Source: Candidatus Pacearchaeota archaeon | GTDB taxonomy: Archaea; Nanobdellota; Nanobdellia; Pacearchaeales; GW2011-AR1 | Reading direction: 5' to 3' | Length of the DNA: 64,000 nucleotides | Assembly (NCBI GenBank): GCA_018303755.1 | Contig: JAGVXO010000007.1 | Coordinates: 295-64,294, forward strand | Shown: in pieces, positions 4,841-64,000 of the stretch | How the letters are laid out: each line of letters starts with the position of its first letter | Position numbering within the stretch: the first letter of the stretch is position 1 | The notes under the pieces: model-generated | Seen by the model: the letters and a program-made list of their open reading frames with translations, nothing else | Database searches by the model: none | Told to the model about the DNA's origin: nothing | Translations under genes and position numbers: made by a program

Positions 4841-4990
4841 TCTGACATCCCATAATTTTCCCTTATTTTACACATTTTATTTTTTAATTTTGCTGTTTAC
4901 ATTAATCCTTTTATCTTTAATATAAATTAAATTTTATAAAGAACCAATAAACCATTGGACGAAGAGTTTGAGAATAAATATAAGTAAACA
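4841..4990 (+). repeat. intergenic repeat family A (degenerate hairpin end)
   Basis: left block TGACATCCCATAATTTTCCCTTATTTTACAC; right block CCAATAAACCATTGGACGAAGAGTTTGAGAATAAA. Confidence 0.7.
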
Positions 4991-5089
4991 CGAAGATTAT
5001 AACCAAGGAGACCATTATGCATCTTTAATCTGATAACCTTTTTTTAATAAAGATTTAAAAAGAGAAGGAGATTATTATGTTTACCTGCA

Positions 5090-6049
5090 ATGGGGGACAG
5101 AAGATTAAGCAGACTTATGGCGCAAGAGACAGAACCTGAAAATGAGGCGGCGATAAAAAGGGGATTGAATATTTATCTTTATTACTGGACAATACCTGTT
5201 TTTTTAATTTTCATCCTGATTAATTATTACACTCCTATTTTGAAAATTGGCTCACTTGACATAGGGCTGATGATTTCAATTGTAACTTTTTTATTCGGCT
5301 TCCTTATTACTGTTACTTTTTCAATGCTTCTTACAAGGGTGTCTTCTCTTAAAGATGCATTAGCAACAGAAACAGGAAGATTGGCCAGTATTTTTCTGCT
5401 GTCAAAACATCTCGGAACAAAGTTTAATCAAGCAGTCAGGCAGAGAATTGACGATTACACTATTTTTACTTTAAGGGAATACACTAATTATTCCTTAAGC
5501 AGAGAGTCAATTTATGGAATTCACGAGGATATTTCTTTGATGGAGCTGAAAACATCAAATCAGCAGGCAGCTGCAAATTCTTTTCTTTATATTCTTGGAG
5601 AGCTTGAACCGATAAGAGAAAAGCTGGAATATCTTACTGGAAGAAGAGTTGAATGGTCTTTAAGATTTACTAATTTAATTCTCGGGACAATCTTAATAAT
5701 TCTTCTTTTTCTTAACAGAGGAGATGCATTTTCAAATGCGCTTTTTGTGATACTTTCCACAATTATAATATTCATTTTATTTATCCTTGAGGATTATGAT
5801 AATCTTAAAATTGGGGATTATATCACAAATATAAGCAACTCAGAACAGCTTTTTGATTTAATAGGAACTGAAAGATATTATCCGGAATTTGTGCTAAGGG
5901 GTGTTAAATTAGAACGGGGGAAAACATATAGAATCGGGATTTATGACCCCTCTGCAAAGGCAGAAAAAATATTTAGAATAACTTATAATCCGAAATTCTT
6001 TTTTAGGGTATCTGAAATTATCCGAAGAGTAAGAAGAAAATCCGTTTAA
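5090..6049 (+). CDS. integral membrane protein (DUF4239/bestrophin-like topology)
   Basis: two TM pairs separated by a helical soluble domain. Confidence 0.55.
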   Translation: MGDRRLSRLMAQETEPENEAAIKRGLNIYLYYWTIPVFLIFILINYYTPILKIGSLDIGLMISIVTFLFGFLITVTFSMLLTRVSSLKDALATETGRLASIFLLSKHLGTKFNQAVRQRIDDYTIFTLREYTNYSLSRESIYGIHEDISLMELKTSNQQAAANSFLYILGELEPIREKLEYLTGRRVEWSLRFTNLILGTILIILLFLNRGDAFSNALFVILSTIIIFILFILEDYDNLKIGDYITNISNSEQLFDLIGTERYYPEFVLRGVKLERGKTYRIGIYDPSAKAEKIFRITYNPKFFFRVSEIIRRVRRKSV

Positions 6050-6501
6050 CAAGGGATTATTTCTTTTTCTGCAATAGGACAATTCCCTATTGAGAGATGA
6101 ACTTTTTCAAATTGTTCCGATGAATCAACATAGTAACTTTTTGAATTTCCTTTTGGCAGAATTGCACAATTTTTGCAGTCTGAAGAGCAGACAAATTTAT
6201 TTATTAATTCTCCTTTTTTTAATTCAAATACAAGAAAATTTATTTCAGGAGAATTTTCATTGCGAATTAAACTTGTTTTTGTTTCTTGCGAACTTTTGTT
6301 AAAGCAGGCAGATTCTATTTTAATCGGATCTTTTAACTGCATACTAATGCAGGATTTTTCGTAATCTGTATTTTCTTTTACATACTTTGATAAAAAGACG
6401 GCTAATATTGTTATGGAGGATATTGCCAGGAATATTATTAAAATTGTTACAACTATATTTGAAATTGCTTTTTTATCCAGCTCATTAGTTATATTTTGCA
6501 T
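6046..6501 (-). CDS. archaeal type IV pilin-like protein
   Basis: class III signal DKKA|ISNIVVTILII; Cys-rich globular domain. Confidence 0.7.
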   Translation of the reverse strand: MQNITNELDKKAISNIVVTILIIFLAISSITILAVFLSKYVKENTDYEKSCISMQLKDPIKIESACFNKSSQETKTSLIRNENSPEINFLVFELKKGELINKFVCSSDCKNCAILPKGNSKSYYVDSSEQFEKVHLSIGNCPIAEKEIIPC

Positions 6502-7616
6502 GGCATTGCTCCTGCATGGCTTAAATCAATTTCTGCCATCGTTGCACCATTCTTTGTGATTGCAATTATTTCCCCCTGGTTTTTTGAAACAGGGATTCTA
6601 AGAATAAATGGTAATTCTGAAAAGAAAACTGTTCCATTGATTTCCCCTCCAAGAGATACGCCTTTTAGAGAATCTGTAAATATCAGCCCGGGATTAAATT
6701 CTATGCCCGAATAATTCTCGTCTGGATTTATGAAATTATATTCAAATTCTCCAGAGCCGCCATTTCCAGCACATCCTTTTTCAATAGAAGTATTTAAGAG
6801 AGTAATTTTTTCAGGCAATGTTAAATTTCCCGGGTTGTAAATTCCTTCAATTAAGTAATAGGCTGCATCATTGCACTCTGCAAATTCAGCTATTGCTTTT
6901 GAGGTTATTCCCTGAAAGTTTTTTGGCATCTTTTCCAATATTAAGTTATTGTTAAATTTCCCATATTCTTTAGAGGATAAAGTTCTCATTACCCCTTCAT
7001 CTATTGAACGATAGTACACCTCTTTTGAACAACCTTCGAAGCATCCATTAGTTTCCCAAGCGAATTTTGAGCATGAAGAAACGCAGTTTTTCGAATTTTT
7101 CGGGATTGTTGCAGGAGTGTATTCGTCTGCGAAGTTTGCAAATGCGTGCCCAAATTCATGAATAAGGACGCTTTTAGGATGATTTGAATTAATGCTCATA
7201 ACTTCCATGTAAGCAGAGCTTCGAATCTCGGCAGATTTTTCTTTAATTACAATAATATAATCGCTTGGGCAGGATGATGCCTTTTTTATAATCTTTTTTG
7301 AATAGCATACTAATGCGATTCCTTTGTATAATTCACATTCGGGAGTATAACTATCAATATAATAAAAATTAAATGCTTCTTTATTTTCATCAAAAGGCTG
7401 CACCTGAAGAAAAAAGTCAGAATATTCTTTTGCCTGCTCTTTTGTTGAAAAAAATAAGATATTCACCGCGTCTGCAGAATTGAATTTTAATTCATTGCAT
7501 TTTTCCAAGGCATCATTTGGCGGGCTCAGGTTATTTGTTGTTATAATAATAGATATTATTGAAGCAATTACCACAATTGCTCCAACCATTGAAAAAAGGA
7601 CATAGTTTTTATCCAT
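6489..7616 (-). CDS. membrane-anchored M64-like zinc metallopeptidase
   Basis: N-terminal TM; VLIHEFGHAFANFADEY; YRSIDEGVMR. Confidence 0.75.
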   Translation of the reverse strand: MDKNYVLFSMVGAIVVIASIISIIITTNNLSPPNDALEKCNELKFNSADAVNILFFSTKEQAKEYSDFFLQVQPFDENKEAFNFYYIDSYTPECELYKGIALVCYSKKIIKKASSCPSDYIIVIKEKSAEIRSSAYMEVMSINSNHPKSVLIHEFGHAFANFADEYTPATIPKNSKNCVSSCSKFAWETNGCFEGCSKEVYYRSIDEGVMRTLSSKEYGKFNNNLILEKMPKNFQGITSKAIAEFAECNDAAYYLIEGIYNPGNLTLPEKITLLNTSIEKGCAGNGGSGEFEYNFINPDENYSGIEFNPGLIFTDSLKGVSLGGEINGTVFFSELPFILRIPVSKNQGEIIAITKNGATMAEIDLSHAGAMPCKI

Positions 7617-7646
7617 TTTTTTAATAAGGAAAGCACATTTAAATAA

Positions 7647-8105
7647 CTATCCTGCTGAGAGGCTATTAGGATACCTGTTTTTAAGAGTAATTTTAATTGA
7701 GAGTGAATAAATAAATTGATAGCCGATTTGCATAATAAATAGGAATAAACAAAGTTTATCTGCTATTAACAAAGTTCCTTGATTATCTTTTACTATGCGG
7801 ATTTGCGCAGAGACCTTTTGGCCATATGCCTCTTTTATTTTTTCAGAACAGATTTTGTCTTTGCATTCAAGGAATATTCTTGCAGAAGAATTTTGATTGT
7901 GAATTGTAATCCAAATTCCTGAACTGCTGTTGCTTATTTTTTCAACAATTCCTAAAATAAATACTTTTGAACCACCTGGCAATTCGCTGATTTTTTCCAA
8001 AGGCGTTTCTTTAGGGGAGATTAAAACTGAGGCAGAGTATAGAGAAAATATTCCAATCAGCGAAATTAGCAAGGCAAAGAGTTTTAATAGGTTTTCTTTA
8101 GTCAT
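7647..8105 (-). CDS. membrane-anchored OB-fold protein
   Basis: N-terminal TM, then ISEL..GSKVFILGIVEKI beta pattern. Confidence 0.55.
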   Translation of the reverse strand: MTKENLLKLFALLISLIGIFSLYSASVLISPKETPLEKISELPGGSKVFILGIVEKISNSSSGIWITIHNQNSSARIFLECKDKICSEKIKEAYGQKVSAQIRIVKDNQGTLLIADKLCLFLFIMQIGYQFIYSLSIKITLKNRYPNSLSAG

Positions 8106-8177: not shown

Positions 8178-8262
8178 TTTTTCTTATTTTAGGTTTGTTT
8201 ATTGGTGTTTTATTTTTTGATTTAAGATATGTAAATTATGATTTGTAAGGGATTATTGACTT
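8178..8262 (+). repeat. degenerate family A repeat
   Basis: TTCTTATTTTAGGTTTGTTTATTGGTGTTTT...ATGTAAATT resembles the 29.7 kb copy. Confidence 0.5.
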
Positions 8263-10296: not shown

Positions 10297-10600
10297 TGCT
10301 CGCTCGTTTCACTCGCTCTGCTCGCGATTGTGCTCACATTGTTTAAAACTTTAATTACATTCGTCCAATCGCTCGCCCAACGATTTTGGCTCGCTCCGCT
10401 CACTTATTTATTCTCCTGCAAACCCTTAATCCCTTGGCACATTGGAATTTATGTATATCACAAAACCCTTTGAGTATACTCCACACTAAAGTGTGGAGTT
10501 TGTGTTTGGGTTTTGGGAGAACCGGGAAAAATCTATACATTTTAACTCCAATCTATGAACAAAGGTAAAATAAGGAAAAGTTATAGGGTGTTAGAAGAAT
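10297..10600 (-). repeat. family A repeat with module C hairpin, interrupted by a family B element
   Basis: minus strand CTAACACCCTATAACTTTTCCTTATTTTACCTTTGTTCAT...GGGTTTGCAGGAGAATAAATAAGTGAGCGGAGCGAGCC. Confidence 0.8.
10457..10554 (-). mobile_element. family B non-autonomous IS200/IS605-like palindromic element, 5'-truncated copy
   Basis: near-identical to the reverse complement of 45040-45138; hairpin CTCCACACTAAAGTGTGGAG. Confidence 0.75.
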
Positions 10601-13963: not shown

Positions 13964-14070
13964 AAAATATAATTAATAAAGAATTTCTTGATTTATAAGT
14001 TTATTGGAATTTAATAAATATTTTCTACTGCATATTATTTTTTATACTCCTACTATTTTTAATTATTTTA

Positions 14071-14385
14071 ATGTTTTGTTGTGATAATGCAAACCTTTTA
14101 AGGAGTTTAAATCACGAAGGATATGATTGCAGGGGATTTGTTTTTTATGGGGGTTCTGCTGAAATCCGTCAGCAGTTTGAATCTGAAATGAGAAAACAAC
14201 TTGCTGGAAGAGAATCAGAATATGTTGTTTTATGCTCTGAAGTCCGTCCATTTGATTACCTTATTAAATGGTTTAATCCTAAGGAACCAAAAAATCCCGG
14301 TGTAATGGGGGTTGATGTTGGTTATTTTATTAAGAATGGCGTTCCGTTGATGAATCATACAGATATCCAGAGAGTCCAAAGATAA
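14071..14385 (+). CDS. hypothetical protein
   Basis: 104 aa ORF with normal composition; 3' end overlaps the ERCC4 gene. Confidence 0.4.
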   Translation: MFCCDNANLLRSLNHEGYDCRGFVFYGGSAEIRQQFESEMRKQLAGRESEYVVLCSEVRPFDYLIKWFNPKEPKNPGVMGVDVGYFIKNGVPLMNHTDIQRVQR

Positions 14386-15037
14386 ACGCTTTTTTCCCTA
14401 TAACTTTTTCCAGTTCTTCTTTTGAGGCATTTATTATATTCTTTATTGAGCCGAAATGCTCGAGAAGCTTTTTTGCATTTTTCGGGCCTATGCCTGGAAA
14501 ACTTTCTATGATATATTGAGTTTGCTCTTTTGGATTTCTTGATTTTCTTTTTAGGTTTGCGCTTTTTTCAGAAGAATTTTCTTTTTTATTGTATAAAACC
14601 TTTATGAATTCTGCTGTATCTTCATAATCTTTTGTGAAAATAATCGGAATTTTTCTTTTTAGCAGAATTGAGAGAATAAAGCCCCTTACTGCATTTTCAT
14701 TTATTCCAGAAGAGTATAAATCTTTTTCATCTGTGCCTTCAATTATCAGAAGCTTTTCTTTGTTTTCATATTGCATAAGAGTATCTAACTGGGATTCCAT
14801 TCTTTTGTTTATCATTGAAGAGAGAAAATCACCGATTGTTTTTCTTTCGATTATTACTTCTTTTACAATATAATCCCCTACTTCAAGATGCACAAAGTTT
14901 ATTTGACATCCTAAGCGCACGAGCTCGCTTGCAACAAGCGCGTTTTTTTCCCTATCATCAATTAGAATTTCCGGTTTATCCAAATCCTGTTCTTCTAGTT
15001 TTCTTTTCTCAGATTTTTCAAATATATTCTCGAACAT
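14330..15037 (-). CDS. ERCC4/XPF nuclease with HhH domain (stand-alone Hef nuclease half)
   Basis: IDDRE, LEVGDY, IERKT, LIIEG, FPGIGPKNAKKLLEHFGS. Confidence 0.92.
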   Translation of the reverse strand: MFENIFEKSEKRKLEEQDLDKPEILIDDREKNALVASELVRLGCQINFVHLEVGDYIVKEVIIERKTIGDFLSSMINKRMESQLDTLMQYENKEKLLIIEGTDEKDLYSSGINENAVRGFILSILLKRKIPIIFTKDYEDTAEFIKVLYNKKENSSEKSANLKRKSRNPKEQTQYIIESFPGIGPKNAKKLLEHFGSIKNIINASKEELEKVIGKKAFIFGLSGYLYDSSTERHS

Positions 15038-15087
15038 TTTTTTAAGAAGGGTTATGCCTTTTTATCTTTAACTGCACTTTTTATTTT

Positions 15088-15260
15088 TTAAACATCCCCA
15101 TAACTTTTCCTTATTTTACATCTTTTCATTAAAGTTTTCTTTTTTATTTAATATCTCATTAAAAATCATAAAGTCTAATGAACAAATGGACGACAGATTT
15201 GCAGAATTAGATAAGTGAGCGGAGCGAACCAAATTAAGGCGAGCCCGAATGGGCGAGCCG
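15088..15260 (+). repeat. family A repeat
   Basis: left and right blocks plus GTGAGCGGAGCGAAC and GGCGAGCCCGAATGGGCGAGCC; closely similar to 28295-28432. Confidence 0.85.
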
Positions 15261-15330
15261 ATAATTCCATTATTCAAATAAAAAATCACAACCGAAATAT
15301 TTATAACTCCCCCCCTTAAATTGTTAATCT
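15251..15330 (+). promoter_or_regulatory. duplicated promoter block with TATA box and poly-C tract
   Basis: identical to 29870-29934 up to the C run; CCGAAATATTTATAAC BRE/TATA-like element, then C7. Confidence 0.7.
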
Positions 15331-15385
15331 TGCTTTCATAACGATAAAGCAGGAATTTTAAAATTGAGTGAAAGGAGGTGATAAA

Positions 15386-16540
15386 ATGAAAAGCAAAGAA
15401 TGGGTTGGAGTGATTGCTGTTGTTGCAGTTGCGTTTGCAATTGCTTGGGTTTCTGCGAATTTAGATGTTTTAACTAATTCAGGAATACTGCAAAGCCCGC
15501 CTTCTGGTAATGATATAAATGTGACTCCGAGAGAGAATCAGACATATTCCTTTATTATGGGGGGAGATAGGTATGATTATAGATTTGGGATGAATAGTGT
15601 TAAGATTCCATATAGTATTGACTTGTCTATTAATGATCCTTTTGCTCAGGAATCCTTTATGAAAAGATTATCTTTTGCAGGGAATGATACTAATAATTTG
15701 AGTTATGCTTATTTTGGATTCCAAAAGATAATAATAAAGGCAAATCTTGTAAAAGTTCATGATACTTGGGCGAAGAAATGGTTTGTTAATTTAACCTTTA
15801 AAGATGCAACAAATGATCCGAATGCACCTTATACGAAAATTGATGGATGTAATCGTATAGATGAAGTAATCATTGATAAAACTCAGGAGCTTACTGATAA
15901 AGGAAGGATTGTTGTGATAGAAGAAATGAGCCCGGTATATTACGGGAATTACTTTATTGCTCCTGGAGATACTAATGGAACTGACGCAGGGATATATAAA
16001 ATAACTACACTTTCAAACTCTTCTACAGAATTCCATTTAGTGCTTACTGATGTGTTTGACACAGCAAATACTTTTGAGGTTACTGACTCTACTGGAGATG
16101 GAATTGCAAGTATCTATATAATGGGAAAACAATATGAGGTTTACTATGCATTTACTTCCTCAACCCTTCCAATTGAAAGGGCTGTTAAATTTGATTTTTC
16201 GCAAACAATAGGACATCAGATTATGGATTTCAGCAAGTGTGCTAATGCACAAGAGAATTATGTTGGTGTTTTGAAAATGTTGAATGAGTGCGATTTAAGA
16301 TTCGTAGACGATTCTTTTTTTAGAAATCAAACGGCTCACATTTCTTGCGATCAAAAATGCCGAGAATCTGGTCAAGTATGTACTGAAGCATATGGTTATC
16401 TATTTAATGGGACAGATGAAGATTCAGAAGATTTTAGAGTAATAACTACTAGGGTTCTTTGTCAGGCACAGGCTTCATCTTCTGATGTTCTGGGTGGGTA
16501 TCCTTTTTTAGAATTAATGTGCAACTGCTGTGGAGATTAA
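15386..16540 (+). CDS. secreted/surface protein with Cys-rich C-terminus
   Basis: SD GGAGGTGA before ATG 15386; N-terminal TM; many NxS/T sites; SCDQKC...C...CNCC. Confidence 0.75.
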   Translation: MKSKEWVGVIAVVAVAFAIAWVSANLDVLTNSGILQSPPSGNDINVTPRENQTYSFIMGGDRYDYRFGMNSVKIPYSIDLSINDPFAQESFMKRLSFAGNDTNNLSYAYFGFQKIIIKANLVKVHDTWAKKWFVNLTFKDATNDPNAPYTKIDGCNRIDEVIIDKTQELTDKGRIVVIEEMSPVYYGNYFIAPGDTNGTDAGIYKITTLSNSSTEFHLVLTDVFDTANTFEVTDSTGDGIASIYIMGKQYEVYYAFTSSTLPIERAVKFDFSQTIGHQIMDFSKCANAQENYVGVLKMLNECDLRFVDDSFFRNQTAHISCDQKCRESGQVCTEAYGYLFNGTDEDSEDFRVITTRVLCQAQASSSDVLGGYPFLELMCNCCGD

Positions 16541-16616
16541 TTAATCTTTAATTTTTATTTTTCTTCTTTTCTTTTTTATTCAATCAGCTTCTGCTGTGCG
16601 TCTTTTTCTCTTTTTT

Positions 16617-19600
16617 TTATATTAATTTTTTTTGTATTTCTTCTTCATCTTTTTTATTTTCGTCTGCGCTTTTTCCTTCACTTTCTATTTCTTCATCCTG
16701 CGCTTTTGCATTAAATGTTCCGTCCTGCATTTCCTGTTTTATTGAGCTTATGGCGTTGTGCATTCTTTTTTCCTTGTGATAAGCGGCCCAGTAATATGCT
16801 TCGTCTCTTGTGTCTTTTGTTATAAGCATTATCAACTCTCCTGGCATTAATCTTGCTGTTCTTCCTGCTCTCTGAATTTTTCTTATTGCGCTTGGAACTG
16901 GCTCGTAAAAAATAACTGTATCAACTTCAGGTATATCAAGCCCCTCTTCTCCTATCTGGGTGCTGACTAAGACATTGAATTTTCCGTCGGAAAAGTCAGA
17001 GATTATTTCTCTTTGCTCTTTTTGGCTTAGTCCTGTATCTCCTTTTTTTGCCTGCCCTACAAAAACTTTTGCACTTGCATTTTCAATCGAATTAATTTCC
17101 TTGCATATTTTTGTCACGCTGTCACGATACTGCGAAAAAACAATTATTTTCGGGTTTTTGATTGAGCTTATTTTTGATTCTATAATTGCTTTTAGCTGAA
17201 GAAGTTTCGGATGCTCTAAATTTTCATTTATCATCTGCTTTATTTTTTCATATGCAATTGTAAAATCAGGATTGCTGACAAGCTTTTTTACAGCTCTGCT
17301 TTTATTCTGCCTTGCCTGTTCATTCAGAGATTCAATATAATTATTTAATCCATAAAGTGTTTGGGTTTCAAGAAGTTCAATTGCATGTCCGATTTTTATT
17401 GCCTGTGCGCATAATGACGCTCCATAGAACAAATTAAAATTTTTACTTCCTCTTGAAATCATAGCCATTATTCTTTTCTGGCAGTCTAACAAAGCGATTT
17501 TGTTTGCGGGCCCATTAAGGATATTTTTTTCTTTAAGCGAATTTATGTTTTTATCATAAATGTTTTTCAAATGAACTTTAATTTCTTTGAATTTTTGCGG
17601 AAATTCCACTTTTATTGTGTTTATGTCAAGTTCCTGCAAATATTCTTTCAAGTCTTCGCTTTCTCGTGTTCTTATTTCAACTTCTTCAATATTCAGATTT
17701 TCACAAATGAGTTTTATTGACTTTTTGTCTGCGCCAGGCGAGGCAGTAAGTCCCAAAATCCTCGCATTTTTCGCCTGCTCGATATACTTTTTCGCAACAT
17801 AAGTGTAGCTGTAATTTTTCACGCATTTATGCGCTTCGTCTTCTATAAGCAGAGAAACTCCTTCTAAATCATATAGTTTTTTCTTTAAATCATTGGCAAT
17901 GCAATTATGGTTTACTAAATAATTTGCTATAAAATTATGGTGTTTATCAACGCTTAAATCATACACTTCTCTTTTTTCTCGACACCCTCTTTTTTCTTTA
18001 ATCTTCACCCACCTTATTGGAAGGTTGAGAAGTTCTTTCAATTTATTGGCACTTTCTCCCTCTAAACAAGAGGATAGCTTTTTTAAATTATCCAAGGACA
18101 GGCAACTAAATTTATAATATTCTGCTTTGCTCATATTAGACTTATGAATTTTTTTCATTAATTCTGGAATAGGCAGTATTTCTTTTGAGCGTGTTTCTGG
18201 TCTTTTTGTATTGTTTAAGGTTTCTATTAGTTTTTTACATTTTTCTTTGTTTGGAGAGGACTCAAGAAATTTTTTTAAATTCAGCCTTCCTGTGAATTTG
18301 AATGTAAAAATTTCAGATTCTTTTAAATGTCTTCCATTTATCGTTCCATGAGATTTTGTTTTTTCAATATTGCCAAGAATGCCTATTCTTAAAAATAGCC
18401 ACTTTAGTCCCTGCACAAATTTTTCGCTTACACTGGATATTGATACTCCGTATTTTGATGCATGGCCATCTGTGTCAAATATTCCTTTGATAAATCCATT
18501 TATAGAATCTTTATCTGCGAAAAATAAAAATTTTGGAATTTCAATTCTTCTTGCTTTTTTTCCTTTTGGGATTCCAAGATGCGAGAAGAAATGTGCGAGA
18601 GCAGAGTTATAAGCAATAAGCCCTTTAGTTTTATCTTTCTTCATTTCAATTCCAAAAACTTCTTTAACTGCCTCTTTAAATTCTTGAGAGATTGATTCTC
18701 TTTCTAATTCTGAGAGGACCACTTCAGACCCATGACCTATCCTATCTCCAATATGTCCATCACCAAACATCGCACCTAAGATATATGCTAATTTATTGTC
18801 TAACTTTTTAGGGAGCTTTATTGGAGAACTTTTTCCGCAGCTATCTGTAAGTGTCAATAAGCTATAATCAAAATCTATTTTTTTTGATAGTTCTAGGAAA
18901 AGTTTTATGGGCATGAAGTTATAAAAATATCTTGAATAAGGCGAGGTTTTAATTTTCTTCTCTTTTAACTTCTTTATTAAGTCTTTTGTAAGAGCAGTAT
19001 CTGCTATTTTTAAACATTCACTCGAAGAGAGGAGATTTAAAATGTCGAGATTTTTTTCTTCTATATCTATCTTCTTTGAAGATGCAATGTAATCTCCTTT
19101 ATTTAGGCTTGACGCTTCCTTCCAAATTAATTCTCCACATGGGCTTATTGTTAAAAGAGGGTGGTCTTTTGTACACAAGAGGGTATTTCCTATTTCGGTT
19201 TTTATATTAATTACTTCTTCGGTTGTCCTTTTCCATGCTTTTGTTGCCTTTAAGAAATCAATTTTTTGCCCATTGTAACCCAGAATTTTTTCATTTATCT
19301 CAGCGACTTCTATTTTTCCATTTAGATAGTTCTTTTCTTCGAAATTAAATTGTTTGAAGAAATCTGAAATTTTTATCGGACCTTCTCCAGTGAATATTAA
19401 TGTTCCGCCATCAATGCACTGCGGAGTTGAAAATATAATGTCTGTTCTCTGCCATATTTTTTTTCTTTTTTCTGCATCAACTTTTCCTGTAAAAAGCTCC
19501 ATTTGAGCAAACAGCTCTGGAAGATATTTTTTAAAATAAGCAATATGCTGTTCTGCGAGCGGGCGTGTTGGAGCAAGAAAAAGAATTTTCTCCTCTGGAA

Positions 19601-19760
19601 ATTTCTGCATCCTATGTATTGTGAGAAGCAATGCAACAAGAGTTTTTCCTATGCCTGTAGGCAGGACTACTAAACAGTTTTTTTCTTTGCATTTTTCAAA
19701 TATCTTTTTTTGATATTCTCTTGGATTTATATCTTTTAAAAATTTCTCTTCTGGCATCAT
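16617..19760 (-). CDS. hef: Hef/MPH1-like SF2 helicase (no fused nuclease) with an intein
   Basis: PREYQ, LPTGIGKT, LAPTRPL, DEAH, LTASPG, EEGLDIP, IQRAGRTAR. Confidence 0.93.
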   Translation of the reverse strand: MMPEEKFLKDINPREYQKKIFEKCKEKNCLVVLPTGIGKTLVALLLTIHRMQKFPEEKILFLAPTRPLAEQHIAYFKKYLPELFAQMELFTGKVDAEKRKKIWQRTDIIFSTPQCIDGGTLIFTGEGPIKISDFFKQFNFEEKNYLNGKIEVAEINEKILGYNGQKIDFLKATKAWKRTTEEVINIKTEIGNTLLCTKDHPLLTISPCGELIWKEASSLNKGDYIASSKKIDIEEKNLDILNLLSSSECLKIADTALTKDLIKKLKEKKIKTSPYSRYFYNFMPIKLFLELSKKIDFDYSLLTLTDSCGKSSPIKLPKKLDNKLAYILGAMFGDGHIGDRIGHGSEVVLSELERESISQEFKEAVKEVFGIEMKKDKTKGLIAYNSALAHFFSHLGIPKGKKARRIEIPKFLFFADKDSINGFIKGIFDTDGHASKYGVSISSVSEKFVQGLKWLFLRIGILGNIEKTKSHGTINGRHLKESEIFTFKFTGRLNLKKFLESSPNKEKCKKLIETLNNTKRPETRSKEILPIPELMKKIHKSNMSKAEYYKFSCLSLDNLKKLSSCLEGESANKLKELLNLPIRWVKIKEKRGCREKREVYDLSVDKHHNFIANYLVNHNCIANDLKKKLYDLEGVSLLIEDEAHKCVKNYSYTYVAKKYIEQAKNARILGLTASPGADKKSIKLICENLNIEEVEIRTRESEDLKEYLQELDINTIKVEFPQKFKEIKVHLKNIYDKNINSLKEKNILNGPANKIALLDCQKRIMAMISRGSKNFNLFYGASLCAQAIKIGHAIELLETQTLYGLNNYIESLNEQARQNKSRAVKKLVSNPDFTIAYEKIKQMINENLEHPKLLQLKAIIESKISSIKNPKIIVFSQYRDSVTKICKEINSIENASAKVFVGQAKKGDTGLSQKEQREIISDFSDGKFNVLVSTQIGEEGLDIPEVDTVIFYEPVPSAIRKIQRAGRTARLMPGELIMLITKDTRDEAYYWAAYHKEKRMHNAISSIKQEMQDGTFNAKAQDEEIESEGKSADENKKDEEEIQKKLI
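17904..19418 (-). mobile_element. intein (505 aa) with LAGLIDADG endonuclease in the Hef helicase
   Basis: STPQ|CIDGGT...TKDHP...LGAMFGDG...IKGIFDTDG...VYDLSV...NHN|CIAND. Confidence 0.92.
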
Positions 19761-19776
19761 TTTAAGGATTAGAAAA

Positions 19777-20427: not shown

Positions 20428-20570
20428 TATACTACTTGGAAGAGATTTTTTATAAACCTTGTTATTGCCAAAAATTTAGGTATTTTTTCCGGGAAGGTTT
20501 TTATTCTGCTGTTTTTTACATATTTTTCCGGTATAGAAAAGTATATAAATCAAATCTTTTTGAAATGGGT

Positions 20571-20852: not shown

Positions 20853-20887
20853 GTTGAAATTTATATAATATAAACAAAAAGGGGAAA

Positions 20888-50399: not shown

Positions 50400-50519
50400 G
50401 TTAATTCTATATCTTTATGCTTTATAAAGTTTTCTTTGTTTTTGGGCGTTTTTGGTTTTATCAATCAAAGATTTTCAAATGAATCAATGTACTTGCAAGT
50501 AGAGCGCAATATTTATTTT

Positions 50520-50911
50520 GCTAACATACCATAACTTTCCATTATTTTAAGTTTGTTCATTGGTGCTTTTTTTAATATCTCTCAGTTAAATCTCAGAAGA
50601 ACAAATGAATCAATTGGCGTAAGATTTGAGAAATAGATAAGTGAGTGAAGCGAACCAAAATAAAGCGAGCCCGAAGGGCGAGCGATTGCACGAGCTAAAA
50701 AAAGTTGATACAATGAGTGCAATCGTGAGCAGAGCACAATATTTATTTTATTAACATCCCATTCTTTTTACTTATTTTAAGTTTGTTCATGGGTGTTTTT
50801 TATTTAAGGCATGTAAATTTCAATCTGCTCATGGAAAAGGATTAGCAGAATAAAATAAGCGCGAAGCGCGAACCATTAATTGCACTTATGGCGAGCCCGC
50901 AGGCGAGCGAG
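50520..50911 (+). repeat. two tandem family A units with a module C hairpin
   Basis: units at ~50520 and ~50751; GCGAGCCCGAAGGGCGAGC; CGATTGCAC-GA...GA-GTGCAATCG. Confidence 0.88.
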
Positions 50912-55308: not shown

Positions 55309-55592
55309 GCTCTGCTCGCGATTGCACTAATTGTATATTCTTCTTTGGCTTGTGTAATTGCTCGCCTGCTACTCGCGATTGCACTCATTATATCTCCTTC
55401 ATTAGCTCGTGCAATCGCTCGCCCTTCGGGCTCGCTATAAATGTACTTAATGGCTCGGCTTCGCCTCGCTTATTTTATTTTGCAAATCCCACTTCATGAG
55501 CACATTGATTATTGGGTGCTTTTAATTGATAATGTAAAAAAGAAAAGATAAATGAAAAGAGGTAAAATGCAGGAAAGGAATGGCATGTTTAA
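55309..55592 (-). repeat. family A repeat with two tandem module C hairpins
   Basis: minus strand TAAACATGCCATTCCTTTCC...GGATTTGCAAAATAAAATAAGCGAGGCGAAGCCGAGC...GCGAGCCCGAAGGGCGAGCGATTGCAC. Confidence 0.85.
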
Positions 55593-55599
55593 AAAATAA

Positions 55600-57582: not shown

Positions 57583-57751
57583 GGTGCGCTTCGCGCACTT
57601 ATCAAATATTCTGCAAATCTGCTAATCCGCGGATACATTGATTCTTTATATTTTTAAAAGGATATTTAATTAAAATATGGGATAATTAAAATTAAAATAA
57701 TAAAACTTCAATAAAAAGATGTTAAATAAGGGAAAAGAATGGGATGTTAGA
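57583..57751 (-). repeat. family A repeat
   Basis: minus strand CTAACATCCCATTCTTTTCCCTTATTTAACATC...CAATGTATCCGCGGATTAGCAGATTTGCAGAA...GTGCGCGAAGCGCAC. Confidence 0.85.
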
Positions 57752-57833
57752 GACATTTAAGTTTATCTTGCTATTTTTAACACTATCCTGCGACTGAAAT
57801 AATCTTTATAAATGCGCGTTGTGAAGGGTATTT

Positions 57834-60800
57834 ATGGCTAAGGATAAAGAAGAGGAAGTTAAAGAAGCGGTTTCTGATGAAGGCAAAGGATTAAATGACT
57901 TGCCTGGAATAGGGCCTGCGGCAATTGCAAAGCTCGAGGCAGCAGGGGTATTTGATTTAATGGGTGTTGCAACAATGAGCCCGCCAATGCTTTCTGAAAT
58001 AAGCGGACTTGGAGAAGCAGTTGCAAGAAAGGCAATTCAGGCATCAAGAAAAATGCTTGATTTGGGATTTATGGACGCTTCTGAATTTGAGAAAAAACGC
58101 CTTGATATTCATCACATTACAACTGGCTCAAAAAATATTGATAATCTTCTTGGTGGAAAGGGAGTTGAGAGCAAGGCGATAACTGAACTATTTGGTGCTT
58201 TTGGCAGCGGGAAATGTGTGAGTAAAGATACAGAGGTTTGTTATTTTAATGATACAAGGATGCATGTTGAACAGATACAAGAAACTTATGAAAAATATAA
58301 AAAATTCAATGAAGAGTGTTTAGTTGATAGGGGTTATGCTGTGCCTGTTTCAACTGTAAAAGTATTGTCTTGGCATAATGGAATTTTAAGTGTTTTGAAA
58401 GCTTCCCACTTATATAAAGAAAAAGTTAATCAATTGTATATTATTAAAACAAGAAGAGGTAGAGTTCTTAAAACAACAGGAATGCATCAGATACTTAGTT
58501 TTGAAAATGGTGTTGCTTGGAAAAGAGTAGGATTGTTGAGCAAAGGAGATTTGATTGCCTCTCCAAAAGAAATTAGCATGATAACGGAAAATATTTATGA
58601 TGAAGATGACGCTTATTTTTTGGGATTATTTGTTGCAGAAGGCAGTTCAAATCCATTTTCAATTTCAATAAGTGAAAAAGAAATTAAAGATTGGTTGTGC
58701 AATTATATAACCAATAAATTTGGCTATTCTCCGACAGTCAGAGAAGACAGAAGACGAGAAAAAATTGTTTATCAAATACTATTAAGAAACAGCACAAAAA
58801 GAATTATGGACAATCTGGATAATTGCAATTCTTCCAATAAATTTATACCTGAAGGCATTTTTCTTTCATCAAAAGAAGTTGTTTTGTCATTTTTAGGGGG
58901 ATATTTAGATGGTGATGGTGAAGTTTCAAAAAGCGATATTTCTGCAACTACAAAAAGTATTAAACTTGCAACTCAATTGACTTATCTTTTTATGAGAATT
59001 GGAGTTTCTGCAAGTTTAAGAAATAGATTTGTTAATGGACAATTGTTTAAAATTATTCGGATTTCTGGAGAAGATAGAGAAAGGATGAAAGATGTGAAAT
59101 TTAAAATAAAAAGCTTTAATCCTAATATCTTAAATAGTTTTTATGGATATCCTAAAAAGATTATCGAGTTTATTTCTGATTTATACAAAGAAAGTATTGG
59201 GGGAAATAGAGGAAGGTTAAGAAAAGAATTTGGAAAAATAAGCGGCGGTTATGAACATAGGATTTTTACAAATTCCTCAACTCCATTTGTTATCAATACT
59301 AATACTCTAAATAAAATTGAGAAGGTTTTTATCAAACAGAAAGAAGAGTTTATTAAAATTATAAAATTATTAGAAGAAGAAAAATTTTCCACAGCATTCT
59401 TAAAAGAGATTTATCCAAAAATGCCCTTTGCTTTTAATAGTTTGGCTGAAAATATGGGGCTGAAGAAAAGCAGCATTCAAAATTATTACAGCAGAAAAAT
59501 TCCTGAAAATAAATCAGAGATTTTAAGAAATTTGATTTTAAATGAATTAAAAACAAGAGTCGATGTTATCTGTTTGGCTTTAGAAATGATTAGCGAGATA
59601 AGACTGTTTAATTGGGATGTTGTTGAAAGTATTGAGTTGGTGGATTATAATGATTTTGTGTATGATTTTGTTGTTCCAGAAGGGCATTCGTTTGTCGGAG
59701 GAAATATGCCTACAATGATGCATAATACTCAAATTGCACTTTCTCTTGCAGTTAATGTTCAGCTTCCTAAAGAAAACGGAGGAGCAAATGGAAAAGCAGT
59801 TTATATTGATACAGAAGGCACTTTTAGGCCAGAGAGAGTCAAGCAGTATGCTGCAGGAATCGGTGCAAATCCTGAAAAAGTGCTGAAAAATATCTTCGTA
59901 GCTCGCGCGTTTAATTCAGATCACCAGATTTTGCTTCTTGAAAAAATAAATGAAATGATTAAAGGTGGCGAACCTATTAAACTGCTGATTGTTGATTCTC
60001 TTACAGCGCATTTTAGGGCAGAGTATTCTGGAAGAGGACAGCTTGCAGACAGGCAGCAGAGATTAAATAGATATCTTCATGACTTAATGAAATTAGCAGA
60101 GCAGAGAAATCTTGCTGTGCTTGTTACAAATCAGGTTATGTCAAATCCTGCAATGATGTTTGGAGATCCAACAACTCCTATTGGCGGGAATATAGTCGGG
60201 CACGCATGTCTGACTGGAGACAGCTTAATTCAGCTTTCTGATGGAAGCATAAAACAAATTAAAACTATGCAACAAGAAAATGTGCTTTCAGGCAGTTTTA
60301 AAAATTTAAAAATTGAAAATGCTAAAAGTGAGAACTTGTTTATTAATAATAAAGTTGATAAGCTTTATAATATTAAGACAGATTGCCAGATTAATTGTTC
60401 TTCATTACACAGATTTTTTGCAATTGAAGATTTTAATGTTATTGAAAAAGAAGCTAAAGATTTAAAAGAAGGGGATTTTGTTGCGCAAGCAGGGAAAATT
60501 GAAGTGATTGGTGATGAACAAAAATTGCCTTTAGTCCATATCAAAAAAATAGCGAAACTCTCTGATGATTCTTCAAAACACTTAAAATTAGAGCTTGAAA
60601 AGGAAAATTCAACAAAAGAGGAAATTTGCAAAAAAATTGGCATAACAAAAAGGCAATTTAGAAGAGTTTTAAATCAGAGTTGGCCTACTTCTTGCGATGT
60701 TTTAAATAATCTGCAGGAGCATTTTTCTGGAAGATTGCAACTTCAAATGATTCCTGTTCAGACATATAAACATAGAGATTTAATAATTCCTGCTATGATG

Positions 60801-61832
60801 ACCACAGAATTTTCACAGATTTGTGGATATTTTATCGGAGATGGAAATTTTGAAGCAAGAGGGTTAAGATTTAAAGATGAGAGAATTGAAATTTTACAAA
60901 GTTATAATTCTTTATTTAAGGATATTTTTAATATAGTAGGAAGTATTACAAAGGTTAAAAATAAAAACTGCTATACTTTATATATTAATTCAAAAGAAAT
61001 TTCTGATTTCTTTAGACTTATTATCCCCGATGTTTTAGGCTATGTTGCAAAATCTAAAGATGAGGTAGTTGCAGGATTTATTAAGGGGTTTGTTGATGCT
61101 GAAGGGCACATTAACAAAGAAAGAGCGATGATAACTATTACTCAAAAGGAAAAAATGATCCTAAGGCATATTCAGATGTTTTTACTAAGGTTTGGTATAA
61201 GAGCAACTATTAAGTTTGATATTGGAATGAAGAAGATGAGCATTTTGAGGATTATTGGAAAGGATTGTTTGGATTATCTTCAGATTGGATTTACAGCTCA
61301 AGATAAACAGAAAGAGTTATTTAATTATAAGAGGCATTATTTGCGAACTTATTATAAAGAAATGATGCCTATGCAAAGAGAAGAGATTTGGAATTTATTA
61401 AAACAAGTTGGATTAAAATCCTCGCATTTTATGAAGCCAAGAGATAATAGTTATAAATGGGTAAATAGGAAGGAATTAGAAACGTGTTTTAAAGTTTTAA
61501 TGAATCAAAAAATAAATGACAGACAGATAAAACAAAAAATTGAGTTTATTTTTAAATTGATGAACGGCGATTTAAGGTTTGAAAAAATAAGAGAAATTAA
61601 AATTTCTGATAATATTAATAAAGAGTTGTTTTATGATTTCTCTGTTCCTTCTCATGAAAATTATATTGCTAACGGGTTTGTTGTGCATAATTCGACTTAC
61701 AGAATTTATCTTCGGAGAGGGAAGAAAGACACAAGGGTTGCAAAACTTATTGATTCTCCAAATCTTCCTGACAATGAAACTGTATTCATGGTTACAACTG
61801 ATGGATTAAAAGATGTTGTGCTGAAAGAGTAA
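57834..61832 (+). CDS. radA: DNA repair/recombination protein RadA with two inteins (333 aa after splicing)
   Basis: DLPGIGP HhH, GAFGSGK|T, YIDTEGTFRPER, VDSLTAHFRAEY.GRG.LA.RQQ, TNQV, RVAKLIDSP. Confidence 0.96.
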   Translation: MAKDKEEEVKEAVSDEGKGLNDLPGIGPAAIAKLEAAGVFDLMGVATMSPPMLSEISGLGEAVARKAIQASRKMLDLGFMDASEFEKKRLDIHHITTGSKNIDNLLGGKGVESKAITELFGAFGSGKCVSKDTEVCYFNDTRMHVEQIQETYEKYKKFNEECLVDRGYAVPVSTVKVLSWHNGILSVLKASHLYKEKVNQLYIIKTRRGRVLKTTGMHQILSFENGVAWKRVGLLSKGDLIASPKEISMITENIYDEDDAYFLGLFVAEGSSNPFSISISEKEIKDWLCNYITNKFGYSPTVREDRRREKIVYQILLRNSTKRIMDNLDNCNSSNKFIPEGIFLSSKEVVLSFLGGYLDGDGEVSKSDISATTKSIKLATQLTYLFMRIGVSASLRNRFVNGQLFKIIRISGEDRERMKDVKFKIKSFNPNILNSFYGYPKKIIEFISDLYKESIGGNRGRLRKEFGKISGGYEHRIFTNSSTPFVINTNTLNKIEKVFIKQKEEFIKIIKLLEEEKFSTAFLKEIYPKMPFAFNSLAENMGLKKSSIQNYYSRKIPENKSEILRNLILNELKTRVDVICLALEMISEIRLFNWDVVESIELVDYNDFVYDFVVPEGHSFVGGNMPTMMHNTQIALSLAVNVQLPKENGGANGKAVYIDTEGTFRPERVKQYAAGIGANPEKVLKNIFVARAFNSDHQILLLEKINEMIKGGEPIKLLIVDSLTAHFRAEYSGRGQLADRQQRLNRYLHDLMKLAEQRNLAVLVTNQVMSNPAMMFGDPTTPIGGNIVGHACLTGDSLIQLSDGSIKQIKTMQQENVLSGSFKNLKIENAKSENLFINNKVDKLYNIKTDCQINCSSLHRFFAIEDFNVIEKEAKDLKEGDFVAQAGKIEVIGDEQKLPLVHIKKIAKLSDDSSKHLKLELEKENSTKEEICKKIGITKRQFRRVLNQSWPTSCDVLNNLQEHFSGRLQLQMIPVQTYKHRDLIIPAMMTTEFSQICGYFIGDGNFEARGLRFKDERIEILQSYNSLFKDIFNIVGSITKVKNKNCYTLYINSKEISDFFRLIIPDVLGYVAKSKDEVVAGFIKGFVDAEGHINKERAMITITQKEKMILRHIQMFLLRFGIRATIKFDIGMKKMSILRIIGKDCLDYLQIGFTAQDKQKELFNYKRHYLRTYYKEMMPMQREEIWNLLKQVGLKSSHFMKPRDNSYKWVNRKELETCFKVLMNQKINDRQIKQKIEFIFKLMNGDLRFEKIREIKISDNINKELFYDFSVPSHENYIANGFVVHNSTYRIYLRRGKKDTRVAKLIDSPNLPDNETVFMVTTDGLKDVVLKE
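58215..59726 (+). mobile_element. RadA intein 1 (504 aa, LAGLIDADG) in the Walker A motif
   Basis: GSGK|CVSKDT...LGLFVAEG...LGGYLDGDG...VYDFVVP...MHN|TQ. Confidence 0.93.
60207..61691 (+). mobile_element. RadA intein 2 (495 aa, HTH plus LAGLIDADG)
   Basis: VGHA|CLTGDS...CGYFIGDG...IKGFVDAEG...FYDFSVP...VHN|STYRIY. Confidence 0.93.
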
Positions 61833-63247: not shown

Positions 63248-63248
63248 A

Positions 63249-63560
63249 ATGGTTGAGAAACTTTTGCATAAACTTGAAAGATTATTTTTAATGGACGAGG
63301 TTTTAGTTGATTCTGATGGAAATGAGGCTGCTGCATTTTTTGAAGGATTAGCTTCTATAAGAGCAAAGAACGAAGAGGAAATTGAAAATATTTTTAATGA
63401 ATTGGTTGGAAAGGAGTTTGAAGGATGTTTCAAAATAAGCACAAATTATGCAATACTTCTGGGAATTCCTGAAAGAGCAGACGCTTATGCAATTGGAAAA
63501 GGAACTGAATTTTTCAGCAGGCATAATTTATATCCTGTTGCTTACTGCAGAATTCTTTGA
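63249..63560 (+). CDS. hypothetical protein
   Basis: ORF directly after EndoQ. Confidence 0.45.
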   Translation: MVEKLLHKLERLFLMDEVLVDSDGNEAAAFFEGLASIRAKNEEEIENIFNELVGKEFEGCFKISTNYAILLGIPERADAYAIGKGTEFFSRHNLYPVAYCRIL

Positions 63561-63653
63561 GAATATTAATTTAATTCTTAGATTAAATATTTATTTAATC
63601 TCTTGATTATTTTATTGCGGGGTTGTTTAGAGATTGTGCAAATATTTTGATGT

Positions 63654-63863
63654 TCATTTATTCCATCTTTTATCTAATTTATTGTCCCAATCTTTTTTGA
63701 GCGATTTTTCAGATGCGAGCATTGTCATAATTCCCTCTTTATTCAAATTTTTCATAAATTTCTCCCTGAATTTATATCCTGCGTCTTTTGTTTCTGAGGC
63801 GCATTTGAGGCATTTTTTCTCCATTGTGTATGCATTGCACTTTGCGCATTTTTTCAAGTTCAT
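63654..63863 (-). CDS. Nop10-like Zn-ribbon protein with an antitoxin-like C-terminal tail
   Basis: LKKCAKCNAYTMEKKCLKCASET...YKF, then TMLASEKSLKKDW...W. Confidence 0.6.
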   Translation of the reverse strand: MNLKKCAKCNAYTMEKKCLKCASETKDAGYKFREKFMKNLNKEGIMTMLASEKSLKKDWDNKLDKRWNK

Positions 63864-63925
63864 TTTAATAATAAATTATTTTAATGTATTTAAATTTGTT
63901 TGGAAAGATATGCGAATAAATTCTT

Positions 63926-64000
63926 TTGCTAACACTCCAAATTTCCTTATTTTAAATTTGTTTCTTGGTGTTTTTTATCTTTAATATTTTAAAGTACAAT
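63926..64000 (+). repeat. family A repeat, left block (cut by the window end)
   Basis: GCTAACACTCCAAATTTCCTTATTTTAAATTTGTTTCTTGGTGTTTT. Confidence 0.7.

Follow-up and report, generated by a model that had tools for sequence, protein, structure and literature searches.

A Dense Gene-less Repeat Family in a Groundwater DPANN Archaeon, Probably the cis-Acting Part of a Mobilization or Exchange System

DPANN symbionts are generally regarded as having streamlined genomes. In the 64,000-nucleotide stretch of archaeal DNA analyzed here (the window), many of the larger gaps between genes are filled by copies of one repeat, denoted family A. The question raised by this locus is what kind of element the repeat is and by what means it spreads. 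The initial annotation had called it an unnamed, dispersed, noncoding mobile element of a DPANN archaeon, and this description is supported by the analysis reported here.

Copies and Anatomy of Family A

Family A is a gene-less unit of ~150 bases, present in ~190 copies in the genome of its host, a groundwater archaeon. Profile HMMs were built from the copies and then refined. The genome-wide scan proposed initially identified 193 L blocks, 195 R blocks, 154 complete units, and 169 loci in the 769,330-bp assembly (G000, 81.6% complete), or ~4% of its DNA, and the refined HMMs found no match at E ≤ 1 in the reversed and locally shuffled genomes used as controls. The Rfam check, also proposed, returned no family at the gathering score in the window, and a tRNA scan of the window returned nothing. 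We found no published description of the repeat in the main texts of the open-access literature; catalogues of MITEs (e.g., PMC11602168) may list it.

Each unit is composed of an L block, an AT-rich spacer, an R block, and hairpins with GNA loops that occur on one strand only. Of the 18 copies listed initially, 17 were confirmed by HMM on the strand given and within ~10 bases of the start given; the other, at 8178, proved to be a remnant that covers only model columns 22–60 and is without a right block. The features of the window are as follows.

4836–4978, + strand: family A copy from the L block to the end of R, with a decayed tail hairpin
8178–8216, + strand: remnant limited to the right part of the L block and scoring below threshold (E = 0.47)
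10389–10600, – strand: family A copy whose spacer holds a nested family B element (10457–10555); hairpin tail extends further
15084–15257, + strand: family A copy that has two tail hairpins; 87% identity to the 28290 copy in the body, tail in common with the 21414 and 29707 copies
21414–21614, + strand: family A copy, first in a head-to-tail pair
21627–21760, + strand: family A copy, L block with a decayed R block, end approximate
25697–25966, – strand: family A copy with a nested family B element (25796–25922) and a terminal tandem-GA, GAA-loop hairpin (25697–25711)
28290–28434, + strand: family A copy, left edge of the variable module
28306–28323, + strand: L core, 18 bp shared with 29723–29740; contains the junction of the empty allele on contig L115
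28324–29740, + strand: 1,417-bp module missing from L115, made up of the remainder of the left copy, two ORFs, and the left part of the next copy
28490–29095: DUF6036 nucleotidyltransferase, in the variable module
29013–29693: unknown ORF in the variable module, present in 2 of 21 genus genomes
29707–29876, + strand: family A copy, right edge of the module; L core at 29723–29740
33144–33293, + strand: family A copy, first in a head-to-tail pair, with hairpin and linker
33294–33451, + strand: family A copy, second in the pair; further hairpins behind
41767–41926, – strand: family A copy
44195–44345, + strand: family A copy, R end at 44326; tail end approximate
50515–50744, + strand: family A copy, first in a pair, with a long multihairpin tail and linker
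50745–50907, + strand: family A copy, second in the pair
55475–55597, – strand: family A copy, L to R end; long hairpin tail runs on to lower coordinates
57584–57756, – strand: family A copy upstream of radA
63923–64000, + strand: family A copy leaving the window; R end at ~64038 in the contig

The conserved body is ~120 nt long. The left end is T-rich, and in many copies L begins with a YTAAC-like motif. Within L there is a core that reads ATAA, 7 bp, TTAT, where 7 bp is the consensus length of the center; its inner arms are variable, the third base of ATAA being T in 35% and the TT of TTAT being AC in ~20%. The same hexamer, most often TTATTY, is found at the left end and at +11 to +16 of the core. 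Spacer lengths are broadly spread (44–70 nt), with no clear helical period by eye. The initial annotation saw no clear terminal inverted repeats. This holds for single copies, where the inverted similarity of L and R is weak (13.6 versus 11.7 when shuffled), but the profiles show R to be a degenerate reverse complement of L, with a score that was reached by 2 of 300 column shuffles (1 of 300 for the terminal part).

Among 252 triloop motifs in 195 tails, 150 are GNA and 8 are complementary, and 115 of the 134 intergenic hairpins are located within 300 nt behind an R block on the same strand. In 94 tails, the 9 nt before the first hairpin are A-rich, end in a G-T-G-C-like sequence, and do not contain the tetranucleotide GTAG. 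A T-run follows the hairpin when the minus strand is read. According to PMC13037366, GNA mini-hairpins have particular stability as DNA and less as RNA, and they occur at single-strand priming sites.

The absence of coding capacity noted at the outset was borne out, because no conserved open frame passes through L (the best is open in 97 of 193 copies); a small peptide is thereby ruled out. A structured RNA or a folded attC-like site was ruled out as well: no covariation links L and R within copies, L pairs no better with its own R than with a permuted partner, and the body folds no better than shuffled sequences (mean fold z between –0.45 and +0.15).

Placement and Mobility

Family A occupies most of the large gaps in the window, as first stated, when these are taken as ≥200 bp (13 of 23) or ≥300 bp (9 of 12), but not at ≥150 bp (13 of 27). 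Genome-wide, 45 of 46 neighboring copies are arranged head to tail; the order described for the pairs therefore stands, while the linker quoted for them occurs exactly only once in the window and five times in the genome. An integron-like cassette polarity was not upheld: all four gene-orientation contexts are occupied (49, 41, 35, and 25), and 79 of 137 adjacent loci are on the same strand. The strand of the element matches the local gene strand in 74 of 148 cases, which gives no sign of replication-strand polarity. Essential genes such as tyrS and radA are found near copies. In 41 solo copies, target-site duplications of 5–8 bp occur at the permutation level, in agreement with the initial annotation, and 4-mer flank matches are slightly in excess (34 versus 28.7 ± 2.5). 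Truncations are symmetric (30 R-only, 31 L-only). For ~4 of the L-only matches there is an R-only match beyond genes; these cases were judged by eye to be near chance, and the idea of an autonomous copy carrying a gene between its two blocks was rejected.

It is quite improbable that transcription termination or punctuation is the main reason for which the repeat is maintained. The T-run on the minus strand would suit such a role, as would the many L ends located 7–34 bp past a stop codon and the excess of co-oriented copies in tandem gaps (49 versus 25, p = 0.007). However, divergent gaps need no terminator, yet they are filled about as often as convergent gaps (35 of 149 versus 41 of 152, p = 0.51), the loop rule fits DNA on the plus strand, copies in the relatives G001 and G007 have no hairpin by eye, and the spread and mosaic structure of the family would be left unexplained. 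A terminator role for some copies may be a side effect.

In five relatives from the genus (G001, G007, G014, G010, and G005) only the L core is kept. Among 55 syntenic gene-pair rows, some of which repeat a locus, the gap is occupied only in the relative in 10, only in G000 in 6, and in both in none; for 7 of those 10, the corresponding gap in G000 measures ≤46 bp. Because none of the 16 occupied gaps is shared, we conclude that family A is mobile. A recent duplicate pair in G010 is identical up to the end of the hairpin, where the identity stops. By eye, the copies in G001 and G007 are without a GNA tail, and some form inverted pairs placed back to back. Viral contigs gave 1 and 0 exact matches, the single match being without an R block; a collection of genome contigs gave 9 loci, 1 of them archaeal, and no RNA run was present among the sequencing-run matches listed.

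Substitutions in the copies (C>T 0.129, G>A 0.119, A>G 0.048, and T>C 0.042) resemble neutral AT-biased drift, and the symmetry of C>T and G>A means that there is no signal of single-strand deamination. Most copies are old, and present-day activity is probably low. The same rates bear on retroposition of the copies by a resident DGR-type reverse transcriptase, which is largely refuted and very improbable indeed. A reverse transcriptase is encoded in G000 and in three of the four other carriers tested, and the left end is T-rich, but the enzyme occurs in 15 of 21 genus genomes irrespective of the element, and none was detected in the carrier G005. Adenine-specific mutation is seen on neither strand, and truncation is not polar.

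Mosaic Copies and the Internal Core

The copies are mosaics, with segment identities that are uncorrelated among 144 copies (Spearman ≤0.09). Six of 15 tract starts fall at +9 to +14 of the core, compared with 8% under uniform breakpoints (p = 7 × 10^–4, for a bin chosen after looking), and 1 of 15 falls at the element end, where 84% would be expected for whole-copy duplication. In G001 two of three tracts span the whole element and one starts at +9; no tracts were found in G007. The copies thus appear to trade segments, and possibly intervening genes, mostly at one fixed internal point.

The comparison of filled and empty sites, which had been proposed initially, yielded one empty allele in addition to the 16 unshared gaps. 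This allele is a single metagenome contig from the same species, L115, which matches 28209–28323 and then 29723–29830, both identically, and is without the 1,417-bp two-gene module. The joint is located inside the 18-bp core, which is also the longest stretch shared by the two module-edge copies (18 versus 10 bp). The joint was absent among those listed for window positions 14001–34000 from the contigs of 8 of 20 sequencing runs. The module homologue in G014 has no core upstream, and the homologues of the cargo genes carry the names Pacearchaeota and Nanoarchaeota.

The L core could be a dif-like site for a host XerA-type tyrosine recombinase, with small one-site circles integrating either at copies already present, which would produce arrays and cassette-like modules, or at secondary sites, although we consider this unlikely. 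The core resembles the inner arms of the Pyrococcus abyssi dif site, where 11-bp arms surround a 6-bp center (PMC2958812). The window allele and L115 have the layout expected from a single crossover with a one-site circle, head-to-tail arrays are common to both systems, and the inverted related blocks ~80–100 nt apart recall CTX-phi attP, for which PMC5357621 describes two inverted sites ~90 nt apart on a single strand. Tyrosine recombinases are encoded by all 20 relatives, many with two or more genes that look XerA-like by eye, and the lack of one in G000 may therefore be an assembly gap. However, membership in the dif class was rejected, since the center is 7 bp rather than 6 and the arms match only over the inner 4 bp, which vary freely. 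A simulated exchange at +4 to +13 predicts 34% of tract starts at 0 to +8, but none of the 15 falls there, and three are at +13/+14, to the right of the center. The Xer genes are equally frequent in relatives without the core, a CTX-type site needs an L–R fold that is unsupported here, and keeping ~190 live Xer sites of either orientation close to essential genes, tyrS and radA among them, would presumably carry a cost. The L core was also rejected as a single-copy dif in the family, where 10 of 200 genomes have 1–2 matches and the 11 loci retrieved looked by eye like chance, mostly within coding sequence.

Prokaryotic MITEs are short, gene-less, and intergenic, with inverted similarity at their ends. 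Family A could be an old DDE-moved MITE with decayed TIRs fused to a REP-like hairpin, its mosaics and the deletion arising from homology-driven gene conversion and slippage; we regard this, too, as unlikely. It would account for the profile-level similarity of the ends, the drift-like decay, and the location of the L115 junction in the longest common stretch. DDE elements are at hand (an IS630 is present in the window), and 17 of 150 other members of the order also have the hairpin, with unrelated upstream DNA in those examined. Against it, target-site duplications of ≥5 bp are lacking, the internal core rather than the ends is kept across species, an asymmetric hairpin tail lies outside the right repeat, and the breakpoints are clustered rather than uniform. 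The nearly strict head-to-tail arrays and one-strand hairpins would be left unexplained, and no IS with matching ends was found among the repeats inspected. Elements of the IS1111 subfamily have near-perfect subterminal IRs of 11–13 bp (PMC11187229), and derivation from IS1111 was ruled out, since the 12-bp IR of the single IS1111 in G000, which is inserted inside a family A hairpin, is unrelated.

Known Systems and a Possible Single-Strand Mechanism

In the account of PMC8266576, a REP is a palindrome that follows a conserved tetranucleotide, mostly GTAG; BIMEs pair inverted REPs, and the tnpA-REP gene is flanked by cognate repeats. Family A is similar in having hundreds of intergenic copies, small single-strand hairpins, and tandem clusters, and in being struck by an IS1111 element as are Pseudomonas REPs (PMC11187229). 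It differs in its direct pairs, its 120-nt conserved body, and the lack of a detected tnpA-REP. The REP/BIME assignment suggested at first was accordingly abandoned, because 45 of 46 neighbors are direct where BIMEs are inverted, no GTAG precedes the hairpins, and the GNA loops keep to one strand (150 versus 8). Integron attC sites and CALINs (PMC9668308) share a YTAAC-like start, GNA hairpins, a variable gene module between direct copies, and use as an IS1111 target. Family A, however, has no covarying foldback and no gene-to-site polarity, is dispersed among core genes, and comes with no integrase detected in the G000 assembly; membership in attC was rejected since own and permuted L–R pairings are equal.

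The HINE/DINE-1 elements are eukaryotic nonautonomous Helentrons, described in PMC4067079 as having subterminal IRs, a 3′ stem-loop, and T-rich targets that are left unchanged. Family A likewise is noncoding, of high copy number, and variable in its center, with (degenerate) subterminal IRs, a stem-loop near the 3′ end, and an unmodified T-rich target; no paralogous empty site was found, and its ends are placed approximately. It differs in being archaeal, in the degeneracy of its IRs, in having an internal exchange hot spot and GNA/tandem-GA hairpins, and in that no autonomous Rep/helicase partner was found. The parallel is one of analogy, not homology.

The initial annotation had proposed co-occurrence with a Y1 transposase or a tyrosine recombinase. 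Neither Y1_Tnp nor PF00589 has a match in the 81.6% complete G000 assembly, and neither family tracks the element in the relatives. There, the Y1 genes resemble IS200 TnpA and the PF00589 matches look XerA-like, both by eye and the latter with no IntI-specific model used. None of the 4 Y1 loci scanned in other genera contains the hairpin motif, and the Y1 gene near an L core in G014 and G007 is an ordinary IS200 with its own ends. Serine recombinases (2 of 5 carriers) and IS110 (2 of 21 genomes) were rejected as partners because they do not track the element. Three HUH families were searched in these incomplete assemblies: Y2_Tnp was found in none of the 5 carriers, and Rep_1 gave no match, although its control likewise matched nowhere. 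A regular expression for the HUH motif gave 4 matches over 819 crude ORFs. No autonomous long copy was seen.

The unshared gaps, the cluster of breakpoints in the L core, and the empty allele indicate that family A, as was proposed initially, is probably the cis-acting part of a mobilization or exchange system. Our preferred reading, which we hold at somewhat less than even confidence, is that it is a nonautonomous, rolling-circle-like element that likely moves as a single strand, cut and rejoined by a probable, candidate HUH (rolling-circle-type) enzyme that would recognize the conserved left core. The plus strand would be the one displaced, and the hairpins would end or prime it. A cut at the left-end motif would place whole copies into T-rich DNA, while a cut at the internal motif would swap the downstream part between copies and could add or drop genes between two copies on the same strand. 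A bolder extension is doubtful, namely that family A is a prokaryotic counterpart of the nonautonomous Helentrons, a DPANN rolling-circle-type mini-element whose internal core serves as a site-specific exchange point, with the 190 dispersed copies forming a cassette system that would span the genome, need no integrase, and gain and lose gene modules through the action of an undescribed enzyme.

In this archaeon, a single mobile repeat that has no name takes up ~4% of the DNA and is found in about half of the larger gene gaps. Should the core be cut by an enzyme and used for exchange, these archaea would be able to trade accessory genes in the absence of any known integron, and the core would define an exact 18-bp substrate for tracking down a new DNA-joining enzyme. 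Should family A instead be a decayed MITE, it would remain a new family of high density, affecting the spacing of genes and serving as a target for at least two other mobile elements.

Copies and anatomy of family A

The host genome assembly (G000; 769,330 bp in 36 contigs, 81.6% complete, with the window as contig C9) was found to contain 193 L and 195 R blocks when scanned with HMMs for the two conserved blocks of the gene-less repeat family A. The blocks form 154 L/R pairs and 169 loci, together ~31 kb, and no block match was obtained at E ≤ 1 in reversed and locally shuffled G000 controls. Of the 18 copies that the initial annotation had placed in the window, 17 were recovered with the HMMs; the copy at 8178 is sub-threshold and is retained only as a remnant. 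Using a gene set of crude ORF calls (n = 819), on which all gap and context counts rest, family A was determined to occupy 142 of the 296 gaps of at least 150 bp genome-wide, and 10 block matches fall inside called ORFs. Copies are present in all four gene-orientation contexts (49/41/35/25). Convergent gaps (41/152) and divergent gaps (35/149) are filled to the same extent, a pattern that speaks against termination as the principal role and also against an attC-like polarity. In tandem gaps the repeat lies on the strand of the genes 49 times versus 25 on the opposite strand (p = 0.007). A search of Rfam, suggested in the initial annotation, returned nothing in the window and leaves family A without a named RNA family there; ARAGORN found nothing in the window.

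In each unit, L (~50 nt) and R (~40 nt) are separated by an AT-rich spacer, in most cases of 44-70 nt from anchor to anchor, and followed by GC hairpins that vary in number and are in some cases decayed. The sharply defined left end adjoins T-rich DNA, and its hexamer is the same as that at +11 to +16 of the L core, the conserved ATAA-7 bp-TTAT part of L (position 0 is the first A of ATAA). R corresponds to the reverse complement of L in degenerate form; of 300 column shuffles, two scored at least as high as the profiles, and one did so for the terminal part of the inverted similarity. The earlier remark that no clear terminal inverted repeats were seen holds for single copies but not at the level of the profiles. 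L pairs with its own R no better than with random partners, L and R within one copy do not covary, and the body folds no better than shuffles, either as DNA or as RNA; the two blocks therefore act as sequence motifs and not as a stem.

The loops of the tail hairpins are strand-specific, with 150 GNA loops (GAA 115, GCA 20, GGA 8, GTA 7) versus 8 complementary ones, and 115 of 134 intergenic hairpins follow an R block on the same strand. By our reading of the counted motifs, the tail hairpins often carry tandem GA pairs. GNA mini-hairpins are described as unusually stable in DNA, far less so in RNA, and as marking single-strand priming sites (PMC13037366, excerpt). Close neighbours are direct in 45 of 46 cases, in agreement with the proposed head-to-tail pairing; family A is not a member of the REP/BIME class to which it had been likened (definition in PMC8266576, excerpt). 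No target duplications of 5-8 bp were seen in 41 solo copies, in line with the initial annotation, with 4-mers slightly above permutation. Membership among integron attC sites (PMC9668308, excerpt) was rejected, given the lack of gene-orientation polarity and of L/R covariation.

Probable exchange at the L core and an empty allele

When 144 family A copies were compared pairwise in seven segments, the segment identities were uncorrelated. After exclusion of pairs that share a second repeat (family B) and of pairs less than 260 bp apart, 15 shared tracts in register remain, with starts at -15, -8, -6, -6, 9, 11, 11, 13, 13, 14, 20, 29, 32, 32, and 43. One of the 15 starts at the element end, versus 84% simulated for whole-copy duplication, and six start at +9 to +14, versus 8% simulated for uniform breakpoints (p = 7e-4, for a bin chosen post hoc and pairs that are not fully independent). 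Counting against such exchange, the tract starts in the genus relative G001 are -30, -28, and +9, and the same search of G007 gave no shared tracts. An internal exchange site at the L core is probable. A decayed MITE whose copies were altered by gene conversion is another, less likely reading of family A.

One of 22 metagenome contig matches, L115, comes from the same species as G000 and matches window 28209-28323, followed by 29723-29830, at full identity. The joint is within an 18-mer common to both copies, the L core, and the absent 1,417 bp carry a DUF6036 nucleotidyltransferase gene and a gene of unknown kind. Farther on, the tail of L115 departs from that of the window, and the sequence thereby switches once more at the R end. 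As evidence for exchange, however, L115 is a single contig that may be misassembled, and the 18-mer is also the longest stretch that the two copies share. Among the contigs of eight sequencing runs, two span the filled allele, and the empty-allele joint is not among the joints listed. The ATAA-7-TTAT core and the crossover-like pair of filled and empty alleles would be consistent with a Xer-type site, but the core departs from the 11-6-11 site definition (PMC2958812, PMC5357621, excerpts) and the tract breakpoints are wrongly positioned for it, and we regard this assignment as unlikely.

Also against exchange, the gene of unknown kind from the absent segment is present in 2 of 21 genus genomes; its copy in G014 has no L core upstream, and the downstream side of that copy is cut by a contig end. 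Two-gene nucleotidyltransferase pairs occur at window 22979-24326, 28490-29693, and 41990-43061; one of the nucleotidyltransferases is weakly AbiEii-like, two of the pairs directly adjoin family A copies, and all three pairs are possible toxin-antitoxin modules. A 65-nt leader with a poly-C tract is identical at window 15251-15315 and 29870-29934, before two genes of unknown kind. Leaders of similar sequence recur elsewhere at several loci, and the leader in L115 is interrupted by another IS-like element.

Relatives, enzymes, and other mobile elements

With the full family A model, G000 yielded 147 copies and each of 20 genus-mates no more than three weak matches. With the L core alone, matches were obtained in G001 (17), G007 (14), G014 (5), G010 (3), and G005 (2), against 0-3 for reversed-pattern controls, and in G016 (4) and G019 (3). 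Loci were examined in the first five genomes, which contain species-specific repeats headed by the L core; matches outside the genus look like chance. The tandem-GA hairpin is more widely distributed (17 of 150 other order members), and in the loci fetched outside the genus the upstream repeats are unrelated.

Tandem-GA, GNA-loop hairpins ending unrelated genome-specific repeats
L132-L151 (G134, G063, G160, G163, G131, G165, G083), other genera of the family

Of 55 syntenic gene-pair rows, 39 have no copy in either genome; the copy is confined to the relative in 10 and to G000 in 6, and no row is filled in both. These counts include some loci more than once and come from loci retrieved around known copies, and decayed copies may escape. 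Because no syntenic gap is filled in both genomes, family A inserted independently in each lineage, and the suspected mobility of the element is borne out. A recent duplicate pair in G010 stops sharply right after the hairpin. Back-to-back inverted L cores were seen at L039:1238-1315 (G007) and L048:3080-3103 (G001), an arrangement almost absent in G000. Palindromes resembling dif, with 8-bp centres, lie near tyrosine recombinase genes at L101:1268 (G005) and L092:666 (G007) and are unlike the L core.

Neither a tyrosine recombinase nor a Y1 transposase was found in the 81.6% complete G000 assembly. Tyrosine recombinases occur in all 20 relatives and Y1 transposases in 13 of the 20, and neither tracks family A; the co-occurrence considered in the initial annotation was looked for and not found. 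Y2 was found in none of the five carrier genomes and a serine recombinase in two; of 21 genus genomes, 15 have RT and two have IS110. The IS110 of G000 is an intact 331-aa IS1111-type element (L169:1379-2686, C20) that has 12-bp subterminal repeats of its own. It interrupts a tail hairpin of family A at the GAA loop, and its excision in silico restores the canonical hairpin. IS1111 members target attC and REP sites (PMC11187229, excerpt). The G000 element is parasitic on family A and was rejected as its mover. The substitutions in family A are neither adenine-biased nor asymmetric between the strands, which argues against DGR-type retroposition and lends no support to single-strand exposure.

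Family B (~128 nt, 13 copies in G000, 91-100% identity) is a younger element that carries two hairpins with CTAAAG loops; one of its ends is constant, and the other is truncated to varying extents. We take it to resemble an IS200/IS605 derivative. Seven of the 13 copies are in or beside family A, against a 23% share of intergenic DNA (p = 0.017). Family C (~100 nt, five copies) has short terminal inverted repeats, and some copies adjoin family A blocks. Two collapsed multi-copy elements, whose genes are absent from the assembly, break it at contig ends; one also occurs as a 77-nt palindromic miniature (C6:27768-27844).

Additional mobile elements of G000
Window 10457-10555, family B
Window 25796-25922, family B
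Window 45013-45141, family B (10 more copies elsewhere in G000)
C1:4343-4441, family C
C31:13352-13447, family C
C31:9586-9687, family C
C15:10725-10824, family C
C3:19187-19288, family C
Ends of C1, C6, C10, C18, C22, C23, C28, one collapsed element
Ends of C2, C6, C20, C22, C30, the other collapsed element

An IS630 transposase is contained in two ORFs (window 45429-46437), the first of which has an A-run close to its end. At window 14072/14073, contigs of several runs depart from the window sequence, which suggests a polymorphic insertion; the motif of their loose ends is absent from G000. Inteins are present in a helicase (16617-19760) and in RadA (57834-61832), the latter with LAGLIDADG domains.

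Placement of family A among dispersed elements

With DNA hairpins confined to one strand at its sharply bounded 3' end, head-to-tail arrays, T-rich targets without duplication, and degenerate subterminal repeats, family A matches the layout of HINE/DINE-1 (PMC4067079, excerpt), and our favoured, though tentative, reading is that it is a non-autonomous, single-strand, rolling-circle-like element. Such movement would involve an as yet putative enzyme, predicted cut positions within family A, and a presumed role of the tail hairpins in the single-strand step. No description of the repeat was found in the open-access literature, and the excerpted text of a survey of IS elements in archaea from 2026 (PMC13343696) contains nothing relevant to it. 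Family A is a real and new variant among the non-autonomous dispersed elements.
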